Of a stretch of 64,000 nucleotides of DNA, positions 2,906-63,973 are shown piece by piece; position 1 is the stretch's first letter, and each line of letters begins with the position of its first letter. The notes under the pieces are model-generated. The model was given only the letters and a program-made list of their open reading frames with translations, did no database searches and was not told where the DNA came from. The stretch is taken from positions 13,764,001 to 13,828,000 of the forward strand of contig NC_135813.1 in the NCBI RefSeq assembly GCF_964213995.1. Direction: 5' to 3'. Made by a program: the position numbers and the translations under genes. The DNA comes from Mustelus asterias. Its lineage: Eukaryota.

Positions 2906-3728
2906 CCACCATATTGTAAGGTTGTTTGGTGCCTCACTAATAGGTCTGGAGATGTGCATGGTTGAACATGAACAGTTCATTGGTAACCCATAACTTATAC
3001 ATAGCCAAGGTACTGCCAAGCATGGGTGCTGTCTCTATGTTGGCTCCTTCCAATCTGTACACAGAGTCTATCATCATGTGACTACATCATACCAAGAGTG
3101 GTACTGTTCACCAATCTCACATTAACACTTGATCTGCCTGAACACCTTTATGTTACATTACCTACCCATTGTATTATCGGGAAGGGGTAAAGGTTGGGGT
3201 GGGTCATAAAATTCATCCCTGCTTCTAAAAATTCCCACCTCACTAATGTCAATGTTTAAGGTTAGATAAGTTGTGAAAAAAAAAGGAAAGTTATAGAGAG
3301 CAGGCACATAGGATTAAGATTAAGACGACTGGTCACTTGAAGAATAAAGACCAACAGGCCTGTTCTAATTTTTAAGTAATTCTTTGCAAAAACCACTTGC
3401 ATTTATGGAACCACTATTACACAGAAAAAAATCCCAAAGTACCTCCCAGAGGCATTAGGAGAAACTTGGAAACAAGTCATACAAGAAGATCTGCTTCAAC
3501 AATGTTTCAAGAATGCCGCTATCTATCCTGCTGTAAGGTTTCTAAGAGATATCTCAATTCTAAAGTAGGTAGAAAAAGATCCAAATCTGTACAGTACTTT
3601 GTGTCAACCTGAAAACTTTCCAAGTGCATTGATACTAATAGCAGGAAGCTGTTAAATTCCTTTAACTTTTATAATTAATCCCCAAATCGTAGCTAGGCCA
3701 TTCAGGGGAGAATTTAGAAAACACTTCT

Positions 3729-6333
3729 GGCAAATATGGGTGGAGCTGAGAAACAGGAAAGGTATGACCACATTAATGGGTTGTATTATAGACCACCTAA
3801 TAGTCAGCGAGAATTGGAGGAGCAAATCCGCAGAGAGATAGCAGACAACTGCAGGAAACATAAAGTTGTGATAGTAGGGGATTTTAATTTTCCACATATA
3901 GATTGGGACTTCCACACTGTTAAAGGTCTAGACGGGTTAGAGTTTGTAAAATGTGTTCAGGAAAATTTTCTAAATCAATATATAAAGGTACCAACTAGAC
4001 AGGATGCAATATTAGATCTCCTATTAGGAAACGAGTTAGGACAAGTGACGGAAGTGTGTGTAGGGGAACACTTTGGTTCCAGTGATCATAACGCCATTAG
4101 TTTCAACTTGATCATGGATAAAGATAGATCTGCTCCTCAGGTTGAGGTTCTAAACTGGAAAAAGGCCAAATTTGAAGAAATGAGAAAGGATCTAAAAAGC
4201 GTGGATTGGGACAGGCTGTTCTCTGGCAAGGATGTGAATGGTAAGTGGGAGGCCTTCAAAGGAGAAATTTTGAGAGTGTAGAGTTTGTATGTTCCTGTCA
4301 GGATTAAAGGCAAAGTGAATAAGAATAAGGAACCTTGGTTCTCAAGGGATATTGGAACTCTGATAAAGAAGAGAGAGAGATGTATGACATGTATAGGCAA
4401 CAGGGAGCAAATGAGATGCTTGAGGAGTATAAAAAGTGCAAGAAACTACTTAAGAAAGAAATCAAGAGGGCTAAAAGAAGACATGAGGTTGCTTTGGCAG
4501 ACAAGGTGAAGGATAATCCTAAGAGCTTCTACAGGTATATTAAGAGCAAAAGGATAGTAAGGGATAAAATTGGTCCTCTTGAAGATCAGAGTGGTCGGCT
4601 ATGTATGGAACCAAAAGAAATGGGGGAGATATTAAATGGGTTTTTTGCATCCGTATTTACTAAGGAAACTGGCATGGAGTCTATGGAAATAAGGCAAACA
4701 AGTAGGGAGGTCATGGAACCTATACAGATTAAAGGAGAGGAGGTGCTTGCTGTCTTGAGGCAAATCAGAGTAGATAAATCCCCAGGATCGGACAGGGTAT
4801 TCCCTCAGACCTTGAAGGAGACTAGTGTTGAAATTGCAGGGGCCCTGGCAGATATATTTAAAATGTCGGTATCCATGGGTGAGGTGCCGGATGATTGGAG
4901 GATAGCTCATGTTGTTCCGTTGTTTAAAAAAGGCTCAAAAAGTAATGCAGGAAACTATAGGCCAGTAAGTTTGACGTCAGAAGTAGGTAAATTATTGGAA
5001 GGAGTACTAAGAGATAAGATCGACAAATATTTGGATAGACAGGGACTTATTAGGGAGAGTCAACATGGCTTTGTGCGTGGTAGGTCATGTTTAACCAATC
5101 TATTAGAGTTTTTCGAGGAGGTTACCAGGAAAGTGGATGAAGGGAAGGCAGTGGATGTTGTCTACCTGGATTTCAGCAAGGCCTTTGACAAGGTCCCGCA
5201 TGGGAGGTTAGTCAGAAAGGTTCAGTCGCTAGGTATACATGGAGAGGTAGTAAATTGGATTAGACATTGGTTCAATGGAAGAAGCCAGAGAGTGGTAGTG
5301 GAGGATTGCTTCTCTGAGTGGAGGCCTGTGACTAGTGGTGTGCCACAGGGATCAGTGCTGGGTCCATTGTTGTTTGTCATCTATATCAATGATCTGGATG
5401 ATAATGTGGTAAGTTGGATCAGCAAGTTTGCTGATGATACAAAGATTGGAGGTGTAGTGGACAGTGAGGAAGGTTTTCAAAGCTTGCAGAGGGATTTGGA
5501 CCAGCTAGAAAAATGGGCTGAAAATGTTTAATGCAGACAAGTGTGAGGTATTGCACTTTGGAAGGACAAACCAAGGTAGAACATACAAGGTAAATGGGAG
5601 GACACTGAAGAGCGCAGTAGAACAGAGGGATCTGGGAATACAGATACATAATTCCCTAAAATTCACAGGTAGATAGGGTTGTAAAGAGTGCTTTTGGCAC
5701 ATTGGCCTTTATAAATCAAAGTATTGAGTATAGGAGTTGGAATGTTATGGTGAGGTTGTATAAGACATTGGTGAGGCCGAATTTAGAGTATTGTGTGCAG
5801 TTTTGGTCACCTAATTACAGGAAGGATATTAATAAGGTTGAAAGAGTGCAGAGAAGGTTTACAAGGATGTTGCCGGGACTTGAGAAACTGAGTTACAGAG
5901 AAAGGTTGAATAGGTTAGGACTTTATTCCCTGGAGCGTAGAAGAATGAGGGGAGATTTGATAGAGGTGTATAAAATTATGATGGGTATAGATAGAGTGAA
6001 TGCAAGCAGGCTTTTTCCACTGAGGCTAGGGGAGAAAATAACTAGAGGACATGGGTTAAGAGTGAGGGGGGAAAAGTTTAAAGGGAATATTAGGGGGGGC
6101 TTCTTCACACAGAGAGTGGTGGGAGTTTGGAATGGCTGCCAGATGAAGTGGTGAATGCGGGCTCACTTTTAACATTTAAGAAAAACTTGGACAGGTACAT
6201 GGATGAGAGGGGTGTGGAGGGATATGGTCCAGGTGCAGGTCAGTGGGAGTTGGCACAAAAATGGTTCGGCACAGGCAAGAAGGACCAAAAGGCCTGTTTC
6301 TGTGCTGTAATGTTCTATGGTTCTATGGTTCTA
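3729..6333 (+). mobile_element. CR1-clade LINE, 5'-truncated ORF2 (APE endonuclease part plus reverse transcriptase)
   Basis: Motifs [63 protein letters not shown], plus a (TTCTATGG)n tail. Few lesions: a stop at 4279 and frameshifts near 3780, 4370, 5525 and 6135. Confidence 0.95.
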
Positions 6334-12467: not shown

Positions 12468-13038
12468 AGAACATAGAACATAGAACAGTACAGCACAGAA
12501 CAGGCCCTTCGGCTCACGATGTTGTGCCGAGCTTTATCTGAAACCAAGATCAAGCTATCCCACTCCCTATCATCCTGGTGTGCTCCATGTGCCTATCCAA
12601 TAACCGCTTAAATGTTCCTAAAGTGTCTGACTCCACTATCACTGCAGGCAGTCCATTCCACACCCCAACCACTCTCTGCGTAAAGAACCTACCTCTGATA
12701 TCCTTCCTGTATCTCCCACCACGAACCCTATAGTTATGCCCCCTTGTAATAGCTCCATCCACCCGAGGAAATAGTCTTTGAACATTCACTCTATCTATCC
12801 CCTTCATCATTTTATAAACCTCTATTAAGTCTCCCCTCAGCCTCCTCCGCTCCAGAGAGAACAGCCCTAGCTCCCTCAACCTTTCCTCATAAGACCTACC
12901 CTCCAAACCAGGCAGCATCCTGGTAAATCTCCTCTGCACTCTTTCCAGCGCTTCCACATCCTTCCTATAGTGAGGTGACCAGAACTGCACACAATACTCC
13001 AAATGTGGTCTCACCAAGGTCCTGTACAGTTGCAGCAT
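12468..13038 (-). mobile_element. Young CR1 LINE 3' fragment
   Basis: Open ORF 12550-13038 (LVRPHLEYCVQFWSP...SLERRRLRGDLIEVYK) with a (TTCTATG)n tail. Nearly identical to 34996-35310. Confidence 0.93.
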
Positions 13039-13041
13039 AAT

Positions 13042-13167
13042 GGGCGGAATTTTCCCGTCCTGCCCACCACGGGAATCGTAGCGAGTGGGGGTGGATCATG
13101 CAAAGGTCCATCAACCTCGGGTAGGATTTTCCAGTCTTGAGGCAAGAGTGGCTGGAAAATCCCACCC
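13042..13167. mobile_element. Harbinger-type MITE with 3-bp TSD (AAT)
   Basis: aat|GGGCGGAATTTTCC...GGAAAATCCCACCC|aat. Related copies at 23187, 23524, 27525 and 29311. Confidence 0.75.
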
Positions 13168-15631: not shown

Positions 15632-15959
15632 TTTTTTTTTTATACTTTTCCAATTCAATCAAATCAAATCCAATTCAGAGTCTCAACAAGTTGAGACATT
15701 TCCGATCCAGGCTGACAAGACAGGGCAGGCGACCAAACCACCCTGTCCTGGGCCCGATCTACATGAGCCAAGCTGATTGGAGAAGGGGGAGGTTCCTCCT
15801 CCAAGACTTGGGCTCATTTTCATCTTAGCCAAAAGGCCAAGATGCCGCTTTTAAAAATTGCTTCATATGAAACATATGAAGCCTCAGCGTAACCTAATGA
15901 CCTCAACCAAACTGATAAGAACAGATACTACACTTGATCTTAGCCAAAAGGCCGAGAAG
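15632..15959 (-). mobile_element. U2 snRNA-headed, polyA-tailed retroposed element (SINEU/Keno-like chimera)
   Basis: On the minus strand: U2 nt 5-55 (15959-15909), then ~265 nt of hairpin-rich body including a second U2-like motif (15845-15822), then an A10 tail (15641-15632). Confidence 0.75.
15909..15959 (-). ncRNA. U2 snRNA 5' fragment (pseudogenic; not a full U2 gene)
   Basis: Reverse complement is CTTCTCGGCCTTTTGGCTAAGATCAAGTGTAGTATCTGTTCTTATCAGTTT, identical to recalled vertebrate U2 nt 5-55 including the branch-point recognition GTAGTA. The Sm site and 3' half are absent. Confidence 0.92.
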
Positions 15960-41974: not shown

Positions 41975-42578
41975 CCCCCTGCCCCTCCGCCCCCCCCATC
42001 ACCCCCCCCCCCCCCCACCCCCATCACCCCCCCCCCCCCATCCCCCCTCCTCCAGATCCATCACTGCTTCCAGTGAAACTTGCGGCTGCACAGCCCCAGT
42101 CTGGGTGTCTTTCTCCTCCTGAACTTGTCTCCAGCTCCGAGAGAGGGTCGGCTTTGCAGTCACCGTGATGTCAGGGCGAAGCCCCAATCAGAGCGGCTTC
42201 TTCTCAGACACGTGCTCCAGACATTTAAAAAAAAAGGGGAAAATAAACCTTGCAAAGTGACAGAAGTTCATTTTAGTCCAAAAGTATCTGGAGGAGGCAG
42301 AAATCTGGACTGCCGCTTGGCGGCCCTGCGGAGGAGCGGATTTTTTTGTTGCCCTTGTCCAAGGTGCTGAAACTTGGTCCATGTTCCACTCGCCCCCCTT
42401 TTACAGCCAGATCAAAGCGAAGTTTCAATCTGCTTAGCTTCCGGCTCGCACCAACTTTCTGTCTGGAAATTGGAGCCCAGGGTTTAATTGCTCCGGATCA
42501 TTCTTTGGAAGTTCAAGGGTTTCAGCAAGTTCAGTAGAGTCTCCCCCAGTTCCAGATGACTATTTAACAGAGTCAGCA
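41975..42578 (+). promoter_or_regulatory. barhl1 proximal promoter / 5' UTR region
   Basis: C-rich tract 41975-42052, CCAAT (CCAATCA) at ~42184, CpG-rich sequence and TAATTG at 42485. The TSS cannot be determined from sequence. Confidence 0.5.
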
Positions 42579-43038
42579 ATGGAAGGCTCCAACGGCTCCA
42601 GCTTTGGGATTGACTCGATTTTATCTCACAGGCCAGCCAGCCCCGTCTTACCCAAAGGAGACCCCTTGATGGGCGACTGCCGCTCTCCCCAGGAGATGAA
42701 AGCTGGCCTGAGCCCGGTGTCGGATGTGGGCAGCGAGCAGAGCTCGCCTTCCTCGCCCGGCCTGGAGTGCGACGAGGCGGCGGCGCCGCTGCCGGGGGCC
42801 GCCGGCGGGATGGAGTCGCAATCGCACCCGGGGCAGCTGTGTGCCGTGTCCCAGCCCAGGACTGCTACCTCCTCCTTCCTTATCAGAGACATTCTGGGCG
42901 ATTGCAAACCTTTGGCTGCCTGCGCCCCGTATTCAAGCAGCGGTCAGGCGCCTCAAGAAGCCACTCACAAACACGGGGAAGAATTTAGAGACAAATTGGA
43001 CAAAAGGGAGAACTCGTCCTCAGACACGGAATATAAAG
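42579..43038 (+). CDS. barhl1: BarH-like homeobox 1, coding exon 1 (two eh1/FIL motifs)
   Basis: MEGSNGSSFGIDSILSHRPASPVLPKGDPLMGDCRSP...TSSFLIRDILGDCKPLAACAPYSSSGQ...FRDKLDK...SSDTEYK matches the vertebrate BARHL1 N-terminus. Start context is GCAATGG. Phase-1 donor G|GTAAG at 43038/43039. Confidence 0.96.
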
Positions 43039-44624
43039 GTAAGGGGGGAGGGGGGCGGAGAAACTAGGTCAAACTGAGAAAATGATAAATAATAGAAGTT
43101 CTGGCCGAAAGCTCGAGTGATGATCAAATATAATATACTGAGAAATCGAAAATTCTCAATTCAGGAGAGGAGAGATCACAATAGAAAACTTCTCAATGTT
43201 AGCACTGTTCCTTCAAATACTAAAACTACCGCGTGTGCAACGGATTACGTTTGGATAAAGTATTTTTGTGGCTGTTGGTTTGTCCTTCTCTCCTCGGGCC
43301 GGTGTTGTTATCACAGGAAACCAATAAATCGCTTTTCAATGGTCGCTTTTAGTTAACTAACCCGGTCCCTTTTTCAACAAAGATAATTCTGAAACGCCGG
43401 CTATCGAACTGCAGCAGTGTCGAGTTTAGTATCTTTGAGGCTCTTGCTGCCTCTGTGCCATGCAGACATTTCCATTTCGGGTCGAACTCGCCAATTGCGA
43501 GTCAATCCGCCCATCATCACTTTTACACATAACAGACTTGACCCGTGAATGGGAAACTGTCAGCAAAGGTTTCTCAGTGATCATCGGGTTTAAACCCGCA
43601 GCACTTGACAAAAGATCACAGTGGGTTAGAAATATAGTTATCAATAAAAAAAATACAAGGACGCAGGAAATTAATCGACTCTGTCGGTATTTTGTCCTGA
43701 AATACTCCTTCCTATAAAGCACCTTTGGCAATGGAGGCAGTGCACTTTTTGCGGGAATGGGGGGGAAGAATTTGCCAGATAATATTTTTAATTAATTGAC
43801 AGATCATCGTCATAAAATATAAACTGTTACCTTAACGAAACTACATTTAAATATTGTATAATCCAGTCCGTTAAACTGTTCAATTTTACAATCGAACAAA
43901 CGTCTGTCCTGACCTGTCCCACCAAGTGATAGATTTTTAACAGCAAGATTACTCGGATCTGTGAGATCTCACCTGCTTGCAGCTTTCAAACCAGGCGTTT
44001 AAAAAAATAACAGAGAGTGGTGCATTCTCACTCCGAATTGTAATAACAATTTTGGCAATTTGCAGAGTTGATTTTGGATAAAGTCAAATGTCAAACGATT
44101 GTCAAGAAATCGGGAAATTGAATTTCACCGAATCTAATCTTACTCAGTGAATTGGGATGTGAGTTCCAGACAGAGCAGTGAAAAGTTATTGAAACATTCG
44201 CATAAACGTGTTTTTTTTTGGTGACAGTTTTGCTGTTAAAATCGCGCGAACCTTAAGTTGTTGGATTGAAAAGCAACAACACACCTCCCACATTGAAACA
44301 TTTTCAGCTGAAGGCGGGAAGCCTTGATTGTAACAGGAAAGTATTAGCCAATTGGGAATAAAATGGGAAAGAATGTTGTAAAGAAACTGGGTTTAGGGAG
44401 GCGTGTAACGTTTCAGGATCTGAAGGATATTCCGAAATGTAGAATCATACTCGACTCAATCTCTAAATATATCTTTTTTTTGTGAAATAATTCAGAATCT
44501 ACTCCAAACCAGCAATAAAAATGTGTAATAGTGTGTGTGTGTATGGGGGAAGGGTGACAGTGGGGTTATGGGAGGAGGTTATAAAAGTTTAGATAGTTAA
44601 AACTTTAAAAGAAAGATTAGGTTC

Positions 44625-52385: not shown

Positions 52386-52552
52386 ATGCGTGTATTGCAC
52401 TAAATAAGATAATAAACTTGTGTTATATTGTGTTGTTATATTGTGTGTTGTTATATTGTGTTATATTAAGTGTTAAAATGGGACAAACTTTAGTCCACTT
52501 TAACCACAGCTGAAGAATTCATTCTTTTCCCCCAATTTCTCGCCTCCAACAG

Positions 52553-52844
52553 GACGAAATGGAAAAGACAGACGGCGGTGGGACTGGAACTTCTGGCGGA
52601 GGCTGGCAACTACTCGGCTCTGCAACGCATGTTCCCATCGCCTTACTTCTATCACCCCAACGTGGTCTCCAACCTGGAACCAGCCGCCATGTACATGTAC
52701 CGGGGCCCGGCCGCTCCTCACCCGGTCATCCAGCGACCCATCGTCCCGCGGGTTCTCATCCACGGTCTGGCGGCGGGGGGCGAGCAGCCGCCGCCGCTCC
52801 CCGGCCTCGCAGGTGTCCTCCCCCGGCCGCCGCAGCCCCGGTGA
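52553..52844 (+). CDS. barhl1: BarH-like homeobox 1, coding exon 3
   Basis: Acceptor ...ctccaacAG|G, then TKWKRQTAVGLELLAEAGNYSALQRMFPSPYFY...PPPLPGLAGVLPRPPQPR*. The spliced CDS is 460+223+292 = 975 nt (324 aa), with compatible phases. Confidence 0.96.
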
Positions 52845-60640: not shown

Positions 60641-61533
60641 TGTTTTAATGAGTTACAAAGCTATACCGGTAGCTTTCAAAAATATATAATGTACACAACC
60701 TAGAAATGGCAGAACGCTCCAGCTCAGCCTGGCAGCACGGAAAAGTCGGAAAACCGTCCAAGAAATACTAAAGTCATAAAGGAACAGAGCTTTGAAAATC
60801 CAAGGCTCAAAACTGGACAACTGACACAGCTGAAAATATTTCCAATTTATTTATTTTATACTGTCTTAGTCACTGTTAATACTTGCTTCAAATAAAAACA
60901 TTTTGGTTTTAATAAAATGCCAAGTTCTAACACGGAATTGAAAATTAAAAACCCCGATACCAAAATTCTATAAAACTCCTATTTTACAATACATTTGTTT
61001 ATTCCTTTAATTTTTAAAAATAAATATCAGTTCCATCCTTTCATATAACCTTCTTTCTACTCTTTTGAAATCTCAGGACAGGCACTAATCTTATCAGCAT
61101 TGTACCTTTGAATTCAGACCACGATTAGATAACATAATTGATAGTAGTCCAGGTTATGATAGGTCTTTAGGCTGGATTATAGATATCGTCAAAGGGGTCT
61201 TCAGACTTCCTAAGATGTATTCAGATGCAAGTGAAACATATTGTATGGCAAGGCTGAAAAACAGGGAGCTAATACAGTGCAAACCTCGGGTGTAAGTCAC
61301 CATGTGATGTCGACTGCAAGTCACCATGTGATGTCCACTGCAAGCCCTTGTACTACAAGACAGTGACCCACAAAGGGAGAGTTCTGGAACATTCAAGAAA
61401 TCAGAATTGTGCAAATCATAAATCTGATTTGATTTACCCAGGACTCTGCTCTCGATTATTCAGCCTGTTAGCTTCCTGCATTAGTCACCTCCTCATTATG
61501 AAGTGGACATGGGTTTTTGTTATTCTTTGCTTT

Positions 61534-63973
61534 AGTCAGCAGGAAATTGAGGAGCAATTTTGTAAGGAGTTTACAGAGAGCTCCAAGAAAAATAGGGTGG
61601 TAATAGTAGGGGACTTTAACTTTCACACCATTGACTGGGACAGCCATAGTATCAGGGGCTTGGATGGAGAAAATATTGCTGAGTGCATTCAGGAGGGATT
61701 TCTCATTCAGTATGTGGATGGCCCAACTAGAGAGGGGACAAAACTTGACCTCCGCTTGGGAAATAAGGAAGGGCAAGTGACAGAAGTGTTAGCAAGGGAT
61801 CACTTTGGGACCAGTGACCATAATTTCATTAGTTTTATGATAGCTATGGAGAATGATAGGTCTGGCCCAAAAGTTAGAATTATAAATTGGGGCAAGGCCA
61901 ATTTTGATGGTATTAGACAGGAACTTTCAAAAGTTGATTGGGGGAGTCTGTTGGCAGGCAAAGGGACAGCTGGTAAGTGGAAGGCTTTCAAAAGTGTGTT
62001 GACCAGGGTTCAGGGTAAACACATTCCTTTTAGAGTGAAGGCTGGTTAAATTAGGGAACCCTGGATGATTCGGGATATTGAGGCCCTGGTAAAGAAGAAG
62101 GAGGCATATGACATGCACAGGCAGCTGGGATCAAGTGGATCCCTTGAAAAGTATAGAGGGTGTAGGAGTAGAGTTAAGAGAGAAATCAGGAGGGCAAAAA
62201 GGGTACACAAGATTGCTTTGTCAGATAAGGCAAAGGAGAATCCAAAGAACTTCTACAAATACATAAAAAGTGCAAAAGAGTAACAAGGCAGAGAGTAGGG
62301 TCTCTTAAGGATCAACAACGTCATCAATGTGCAGATCCACAAGAGGTGGGTGAGATCCTAAATGAGTATTTCTCATCAGTATTTACTGTAGAGAAAGGCA
62401 TGGATGTTAGGGAACTTGGGGAAATAAATAGTGATGTCTTGAGGAGAGTACATATTACAGAAAAGGTGGTCTGGAAGTTTTAAAGCGCATCAAGGTAGAT
62501 AAATCCCTGGGACCTGGTGAAGTGTTTCCCAGGACATTGTGGGAGGCGAGGAAGGAAATTACAGCAGAGATATTTGAATCATCGACAGCCACACGTGGGG
62601 TGCCTGAAGATTGGAGGGTGGCAAATGTTGTGCCTTTGTTTAGGAAGGGCTGCAGGGAAAAGCCTGGGAACTACAGGCCGGTGAGCCTAACATCTGTAGT
62701 GGGTAAGTTAGAAGGTATTCTGAGAGACAGGATGTACAGGCATTTAGAGATGCAAGGACTGATTAGGAACAGTGGCTTTGCAAGTGGAAAATCATGTCTC
62801 ACGAATTTGATTGAGTTTTTTGAAGGGGTAACCAAGAAGGTAGATGAGGGCTGACATAGACTTTAGCAAGGCCTTTGACAAGATACCGCATGGTAGGTTG
62901 TTGCAAAAGATTAAATCTTACGGGATCAAGGTAGCCAATTGATATAAAATTGGCTTGATGACAGAAGGCAGAGGGTTGTTTTTCAAACAGGAGATCTGTG
63001 ACCAGTGGTGTGCCTCAGGGATTGGTGTTGGGTCCACTGTTATTTGTCATTTTCGGAGGCATGGTTAGTAAGTTTGCAGATGACACCAAGATTGGTGACA
63101 TAGTGAACAGTGAAGAAGGTTATCTAGGATTACAACAGGATCTTGATTAACTGGGCCAATGGGCTGATGAATGGCAGATAGAGTTTAATTTAGATAAATG
63201 CGAGGTGATGCATTTTGGTAGATCAAACCAGGGCAGGATTTACTTAGTTAGCGATGGGGAGAGTTATAGAACAAAGATCTCGGGGGACTGGTTCACAGCT
63301 CCTTGAAAGTGGAGTCATAGGTGGACGGAATGGTGAAGGCAGCTTTCAGCATGCTTGGTTTCATTGGTCAGAACATTGAATACAGGAGTTGGGATGTCTT
63401 GTTGAAGTTGTACAAGACATTGGTAAGGCCACACTTGGAATACTGTGTACAATTCTGGTCACCCTATTACAGAAAATATATTATTAAACTAGAAAGAGTG
63501 CAGAAAAGATTTACTAGGATGCTACCGTGACTTGATGGTTTGAGTTAGGAGAGGCTGGATAGACTGGGCCTGTTTTCCCTGGAGCATAGGAGACTTAGGG
63601 GTGATCTTATAGAGGTCTATAAAATAATGAGGGGCATGGATCAGCTAGATAGTCAATATCTTTTCCCAAAAGAAAGGGAGTCTAAAACTAGAGCGCATAA
63701 GATGAGGGAGTAGAGATACAAAAGGGTCCAGGGGGGCAATGTTTTTCCACACAGAGGGCGGTGAGTGTCTGGAACGAGCTGTCAGAGGTAGCAGTGGAAG
63801 CAGGTACAATTTTGTCTTTTACAAAGCATTTAGACAGTTTAATGGGTAAGATGGGTATAGAGGGATATGGGCCAAACACCTGCAATTGGGACTAGTTTAG
63901 TGGTACGAAAAGGGCAGCATGGACAAGTTGGGCCAAAGGGCCTGTTTCTATGCTGTAAACCTCAATGACTCTA
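61534..63973 (+). mobile_element. Degenerate CR1 LINE, 5'-truncated
   Basis: [38 protein letters not shown] and LVRPHLEYCVQFW motifs, with many stops and deletions. Confidence 0.93.

Follow-up and report, generated by a model that had tools for sequence, protein, structure and literature searches.

The window analysed here, a 64-kb stretch of Mustelus asterias DNA, holds on its minus strand a short retroposon that begins with a piece of U2 snRNA and ends in an A run, and no further copy of the same family lies within the window. The nearest recognisable gene is presumably of BARHL type, with a probable first exon near 42.5 kb: plus-strand frames that we take to resemble BarH-like homeobox exons lie at 42438-43067 and about 52500-52800, and Pfam gave no match for the frames tested. 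Stretches at 3718-6154, 12550-13095 and 61273-62854 are, judging from their translations, presumably fragments of CR1-type LINE ORF2.

The element opens with 51 nt (15959-15909) that are identical at 51 of 51 positions to nt 5-55 of the U2 genes in this genome, just as the initial annotation had stated. An Rfam search returned U2 (67.6 bits, E 3.5e-11), the sole family to reach its gathering score for the element. The part corresponding to U2 nt 5-39 (15925-15959) is family-wide and 100% identical to genomic U2, and U2 nt 40-55 (15909-15924) is found by alignment in this copy only, where it replaces the family linker; its last 2 nt are common to U2 and the body, a microhomology given which the head ends at nt 53-55. 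The 267-nt body behind it (15642-15908) is non-coding and is predicted to fold into a stack of hairpins. It had been described as about 265 nt of non-U2 sequence, which is right as to length but overlooks that U2 nt 4-30 (stem-loop I) occur again at 15819-15845, in a stretch with 24 of 27 positions identical that is itself a predicted hairpin. The body also includes a perfect 10-bp hairpin (15860-15882), a T5 run (15853-15857) that would stop RNA polymerase III and is one of three T4-5 runs, three more predicted stem-loops (15680-15816) and a low-complexity tail (15642-15677) ahead of the A10 tail (15632-15641). It is nearest to one young subfamily and differs at only 3 positions from its closest copies (L014 and L026), which agrees with the proposal of a recent insertion. 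Also as first described, the element ends in A10, with no U2 remainder behind the tail and no clean target-site duplication (TSD), the longest exact match between its flanks being 5 nt. An imperfect repeat of 9-10 nt with one indel, between 15976-15967 (7 nt off the head) and 15632-15624, is a doubtful 5' and 3' pair of a target duplication, and because the 3' flank is single-copy no empty site is readable for this copy.

A multi-copy U2-headed family

In a genome search with the element, 40 of 2,859 candidates were scored and yielded at least 47 matches, far more than chance would give, the best 40 at 94-100% identity. A motif from the start of the body has 2,436 exact matches in the genome and a 23-nt motif from the low-complexity tail has 4,134, with 0 for the controls in both cases; these counts are floors, since older copies at 70-80% identity are also present. 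The numbers bear out the suggestion of a multi-copy, snRNA-headed family of short retroposons (hereafter the SINE family), the reality of which we regard as virtually certain. For a closer comparison we drew 98 non-redundant body matches from loci L001-L165, a non-random set made up of best matches, first-on-contig matches and loci picked for their target; 88 of them have a full body, and 86 of these 88 carry a U2 head. Elements are about 320-335 nt long with the A tail and are non-coding. An exact TSD of at least 9 nt flanks 45 of the 86 headed copies, compared with 0.7% of shuffled pairs. More than 99% of the family is dispersed, and 7 of the 4,134 tails (about 0.2%) are on-target in U2 genes. 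Dispersed copies show 5' truncation and tandem stacks, 15 of the 86 copies being placed in tandem behind another family member, and no upstream extension common to the dispersed copies was found.

In 40 of the 86 copies the head starts at U2 nt 1-2, and in 83 it ends at nt 34-40, the exceptions being the window copy (55), L010 (53) and one A>G-rich copy. A fixed family junction at U2 nt 55, as the initial annotation had proposed as a possibility, is thus contradicted by the family norm, and the junction between U2 nt 55 and the body has a single match in the 3.68-Gb genome, the window copy itself. The linker that follows the head differs between subfamilies and is fixed within each, and some subfamilies share changes inside the head, which together indicate that heads are inherited. 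At least eight subfamily groups could be told apart, each 1.4-4.5% from its own majority. The family was amplified as a unit, rather than being a sum of separate chimeras, with the window copy's own joint as the exception. The earlier rule of thumb that a varying junction would betray a one-off chimera was accordingly too coarse: it holds for the head of the window copy but not for the family.

Three copies (L140, L109 and L025) carry clustered A>G changes relative to their nearest relatives, amounting to 18 of 25, 15 of 24 and 12 of 16 differences, a likely fossil of A-to-I editing of double-stranded element RNA. A family-wide excess of A>G (p 0.003) vanished when the top three copies were left out (p 0.49), which leaves individual hyper-edited copies as the extent of the signal. 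Pairs and pieces of the element in head-to-head or inverted arrangement, resembling 5' inversions that arise during insertion, were seen at L108/L109, L116, L201 and L222. In a word screen of sequencing runs, 14 rows from 8 studies, representing 8 coded organisms and one hot-spring metagenome, contained 0.21-0.72 of the 29 words, which is a lead only; six RNA rows hold 0.07 of the words, as the U2 head alone would give.

Nature and predicted fold of the body

The body had been proposed to be the truncated 3' end of a Keno element or another LINE. Each copy would then be a separate chimera in which U2 is joined to the 3' end of a Tx1 LINE, Keno or another, an idea in keeping with the A tail, with insertion at the Keno site (described below) and with a short tail motif that looks alike by eye in SINE and Keno. 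The comparisons largely refute it. Of 30 loci followed from the tail, 24 extend as far as the U2 head, 6 begin within the body and 0 run into a LINE, in a sample that a LINE on under about 10% of tails could escape. The body has no significant similarity to the Keno 5' or 3' UTR (p 0.88 and 0.86), significant sequence in common between SINE and Keno being limited to the U2 head and the A run, and the linkers are fixed per subfamily. We consider separate chimeras highly improbable. The element itself, having neither ORF1 nor ORF2 and no Keno-derived UTR, is not classed as a Keno on its sequence.

Other candidate sources for the body were rejected. In five copies each compared with genomic U4 and U1, the best p was 0.04 uncorrected and the others were 0.17-0.96, and Rfam at E<=10 listed neither U4 nor U1 for the body. 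A decayed 3' half of U2 (nt 60-191) fared no better (p 0.49-0.91), and a match between the start of the body and the inverted head reached significance in only 1 of 5 copies.

The predicted fold has an energy of -143 kcal/mol (z -7.8 over 100 shuffles), and strong structure is kept across subfamilies. For the majority of copies, the prediction pairs the head with the beginning of the body; the variable linker becomes the loop, and this pairing takes the place of the native stem-loop I. In 33 of 83 copies the branch-point-binding bases of U2 (nt 33-38) are predicted to be paired at 0.8 or above; for the commonest subfamily the pairing is 0.67, against 0.58 in shuffled controls, and for the window copy 0.49, so that a specific masking of these bases is not clearly above controls and is left as weak. 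Strong structure of this kind, together with the second U2 stem-loop inside the body, is what might be expected if the copies were pseudogenes of a small RNA gene that arose from U2 and was domesticated for a function in the host. We rate this as very unlikely: at least eight groups at 1.4-4.5%, together with the older copies, point to successive selfish waves, and no intact conserved locus of such a gene was found.

A resident LINE as the highly probable helper

According to the accessible part of PMC4640811 (citing Kojima and Fujiwara 2004), Keno and Utopia insert so that the U2 remainder starts from nt 39, reptile Utopia has 20-bp TSDs, and an AP-type endonuclease marks Keno. The M. asterias genome contains a resident LINE with a ZCCHC3-like ORF1 and an ORF2 of APE-RT-zf-RVT structure (Pfam matches). 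At least 51 protein matches were found, mostly at 94-98% identity, and a stop-free frame of 1,144 aa is present in 5 of the 51 listed; the LINE is recent. Its tail motif has 320 exact genome matches, and the U2 remainder behind its tail starts at nt 39, nt 38 being an A that has merged into the tail. We assign the LINE to the Keno type by its domains (AP-type endonuclease and RT) and its site (insertion before U2 nt 39).

Places where the U2 remainder follows an A run were sought genome-wide, and the 58 overlapping matches correspond to 31 distinct sites. Seven of these carry a full SINE body (L062, L065, L066, L067, L076, L082 and L084, from several subfamilies), 2 a SINE-like scrap of tail and 10 a Keno tail that was read directly; by their spacing, 11 more are units of the same 8-kb Keno array, and 1 is another repeat. 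The chance expectation, under generous assumptions, is about 0.001. Most Keno copies are themselves dispersed, 0 of 30 tails on C1-C2 preceding U2. For 4 of 30 Keno tails, a SINE starts no more than 130 nt behind the tail (P about 3e-11, with 10,000 copies assumed), and SINEs likewise follow 5 of 20 Keno loci picked by ORF2, one locus being common to both sets. This adjacency may partly reflect the use of any A-tail as a target, Keno tails being the sole repeat compared. The initial annotation's link to Keno and to U2 genes is upheld by the seven SINE copies before U2 nt 39 and by the SINEs that abut Keno tails, and the Keno-type Tx1 LINE is, we believe, highly likely to be the helper that copies the SINE family.

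Keno copies at dispersed sites can also carry U2 sequence. The dispersed copy L218 has the same U2-Keno joint as L224, a copy inside an array, and the off-target copy L221 consists of U2 10-59 followed by a slightly truncated 5' UTR within a 17-nt TSD, the same build as that of the window copy, in which a long U2 piece precedes a slightly truncated element.

Several further loci were recorded around U2 genes and Keno. On C24, 44.81-44.94 Mb (L122, L123 and L228), tandem units of ~8 kb each consist of an intact U2 gene and a Keno in a split U2 gene; the ORFs of these Keno copies are broken, and the even spacing of 15 Keno junctions implies that the LINE spread here by amplification of the array. 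An older Keno lineage, with a 3' UTR about 70% identical to the young one, is also inserted before U2 nt 38-40 (L227:8187-8626 and L228:7223-7466). At L134:1446 (C1991) a different A-tailed repeat occupies the Keno site of a U2 gene, which suggests that Keno also carries other RNAs there. A second family suspected behind the tail scrap of L132 was dropped, as only older members of the SINE family turned up. On C1418 (L174, L238-L241) the spacers that separate U4 genes contain a Keno copy as well as old SINE copies, and at L060 (C24, 41.74 Mb) a full-length U2 with 3' flank, devoid of upstream promoter DNA, stands directly behind a Keno tail.

SINE copies in U2 genes and the source of transcripts

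One typical SINE copy has three T4-5 runs, no B box and two loose A-box matches; the T runs and the missing B box argue against RNA polymerase III. As read from its sequence, with no internal Pol III promoter in the head, the element is not a canonical SINE of tRNA, 7SL or 5S type. Three copies are fused at +1 behind U2 upstream DNA. The first of them, L126, stands at the end of the C24 array; its 600 nt of upstream U2 DNA match an array unit at 95.7% and lead into U2 1-40 and the body, and the copy carries an internal deletion. The second, L135, is an old copy whose upstream region is interrupted, and the third, L223, belongs to a further U2 array with short spacing on C21 and has private changes; there is no clean master among the three. 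Dispersed retrocopies that include U2-locus DNA inside their own TSD were found at L127, L130 and L131. About 1.7 kb of the short-spaced array, three SINEs included, was retroposed in L131, and L130 reads U2 33-53, SINE, A run, U2 38-58 within a 13-nt TSD. SINE-bearing RNA of U2 loci has therefore been reverse-transcribed.

From these copies we infer that the U2 promoter probably drives the SINE RNA. Transcription could instead come from read-through of Keno or host promoters, the copies in U2 genes being dead ends. This would suit the frequent tandem placement behind Keno tails and behind other family copies (15/86) as well as the want of a clean master, and the array RNAs evident from L127 and L131 need not have started at the adjoining U2 promoter. 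A U2 +1 start, on the other hand, predicts what is seen at the 40 of 86 heads that begin at U2 nt 1-2 with unrelated flanks, and read-through sits poorly with dispersed copies that share no upstream extension. We judge read-through to be unlikely as the general source, and transcription from the U2 promoter to be the probable one.

The C21 array (28.05-28.08 Mb; L124, L125, L223 and L224) is made of a second type of U2 gene, about 90% identical to the main type, in units of ~450 nt. It takes both Keno and SINE insertions, and pieces of it have been retroposed to C1, C7, C14 and C1991.

Origin of the long head of the window copy

At inserts in the U2 site, the U2 sequence left ahead of the insert extends to nt 52 (L124), 53 (L131), 53-55 (L126) or 58 (L127 and L129). 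Because insertions at this site duplicate U2 to nt 52-58, the long head of the window copy, which lacks the family linker, is likely to come from a truncated member that sat within a U2 gene and was transcribed again. The head would then be the scar of a target-site duplication left by a stay in a U2 gene, an explanation that we think rather likely. It is also the course proposed at the outset, when a truncated element in a U2 gene was supposed to have been transcribed and then retroposed off-target; that scenario fits the window copy, with L130, L221 and L010 as analogues.

Alternatively, with the same family and the same helper, the reverse transcriptase could have switched once from family RNA to free U2 snRNA as its template and so produced the long head. 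We keep this rival because no source locus with the U2(55)-body junction inside a U2 gene is present in the assembly, and because repeated 5' additions of such a kind are reported for crocodile SINEU-2 in the accessible text of PMC4494074; the 2-nt microhomology at the joint would suit it as well. Against it, the head ends at nt 53-55, within the duplication edges seen at U2-site insertions, and the only other long SINE head (L010) ends at 53. Moreover, in L130 U2 sequence flanks the SINE at both ends inside one TSD, a structure that a single switch leaves unexplained. A template switch is thus possible but doubtful, and the scar of a target-site duplication is the origin that we favour.

Proposed cycle and relation to known elements

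The element in the window is a dispersed copy of a non-coding, U2-headed family of at least 4,100 copies, which inserts before U2 nt 39 and is likely copied by Keno and likely transcribed from the U2 promoter, a reading that we hold to be probable as a whole. A cycle can be proposed on this basis. A few copies occupy the Keno site of U2 genes, and three of these are joined at +1 to upstream DNA. Transcription from the U2 promoter would yield an RNA in which U2 nt 1-39 are followed by the linker, the body, the A run and the rest of U2; the Keno ORF2 protein would prime at the A run and place new copies mostly elsewhere, a step whose observed traces are TSDs, 5' truncation and tandem stacks. Occasional re-insertion into a U2 gene would renew the source. 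As for the window copy, a member truncated in its linker would have entered a U2 gene, where U2 to nt 53-55 was duplicated in front of it; transcription of that U2 locus and insertion of the RNA at the window site would have produced the long head. In its strongest form, the proposal describes a parasite that lives off snRNA genes and renews itself there: a SINE with no promoter of its own would re-enter U2 genes by way of its U2 head and capture their external Pol II promoter, as its helper LINE would too, and long heads such as that of the window copy would be dated footprints of these stays. We find the case for this stronger form evenly poised.

The closest known elements are SINEU-1, -2 and -3, which in the accessible text of Kojima 2015 (PMC4494074) are confined to crocodilians and prefer Mariner-N4_AMi as a target. 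The likenesses to the description given there are extensive: a head derived from U2 (U1 or U2 in SINEU), a length of less than 500 nt, no coding capacity and a poly(A) tail; internal T runs, no Pol III promoter and no LINE with the same 3' end; tandem copies around one TSD and repeated replacement of the head; and a target in common with a Keno-group Tx1 LINE (Tx1-Mar in that case), a group that can also carry snRNA heads (PMC4494074). The likeness to SINEU-1/2/3 is one of kind: the family has every kind-level SINEU feature tested against the accessible text. It differs in that its target is the U2 gene, and not Mariner-N4_AMi (PMC4494074, in the same portion), which offers a candidate promoter.

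With Keno and Utopia, as far as the accessible part of PMC4640811 describes them, the family shares the site at U2 nt 39, with duplications here of 14-20 nt, and the resident LINE shares the AP-type endonuclease of Keno. The differences from that description (PMC4640811) are that the SINE is non-coding and has no UTR in common with the LINE, and that the resident LINE is mostly dispersed and is U2-headed at dispersed sites (L218 and L221). Mammalian chimeric retrocopies of snRNA with LINE or Alu are one-off products in the accessible text of PMC4494074. They resemble the present elements in joining a 5' piece of an snRNA to another retroposed RNA, which fits the unique joint of the window copy, but here there are thousands of copies with inherited heads. 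Among elements tied to rDNA, R2 and its non-autonomous SIDE elements do not leave the 28S rDNA, and SIDEs are deletion derivatives of the LINE; upstream target sequence in the RNA can guide a seamless 5' joint. R2 itself is co-transcribed with its target 28S rDNA, as cited in the accessible portion of PMC4494074. The family resembles R2 and SIDE in apparently borrowing its promoter from a multicopy target RNA gene, but is more than 99% dispersed and is not derived from a LINE.

In the literature as far as it was accessible to our search, there was no report of such a family from fishes or otherwise outside crocodilians, and Repbase or Dfam may hold it; the accessible text of PMC5786205 still treats SINEU as newly proposed in 2018. 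How SINEU is transcribed is named as an open question in the accessible part of PMC4494074. This question becomes directly testable here, where one genome combines the element, a helper with open ORF2 frames and copies behind U2 upstream DNA. Were the reading as a self-renewing parasite true, it would explain how snRNA-headed SINEs are transcribed and would mean that the SINEU design arose outside crocodilians. The family is also young enough to serve as a marker in trees of populations and species, and it illustrates how RNA can be inserted at a defined site in nature.
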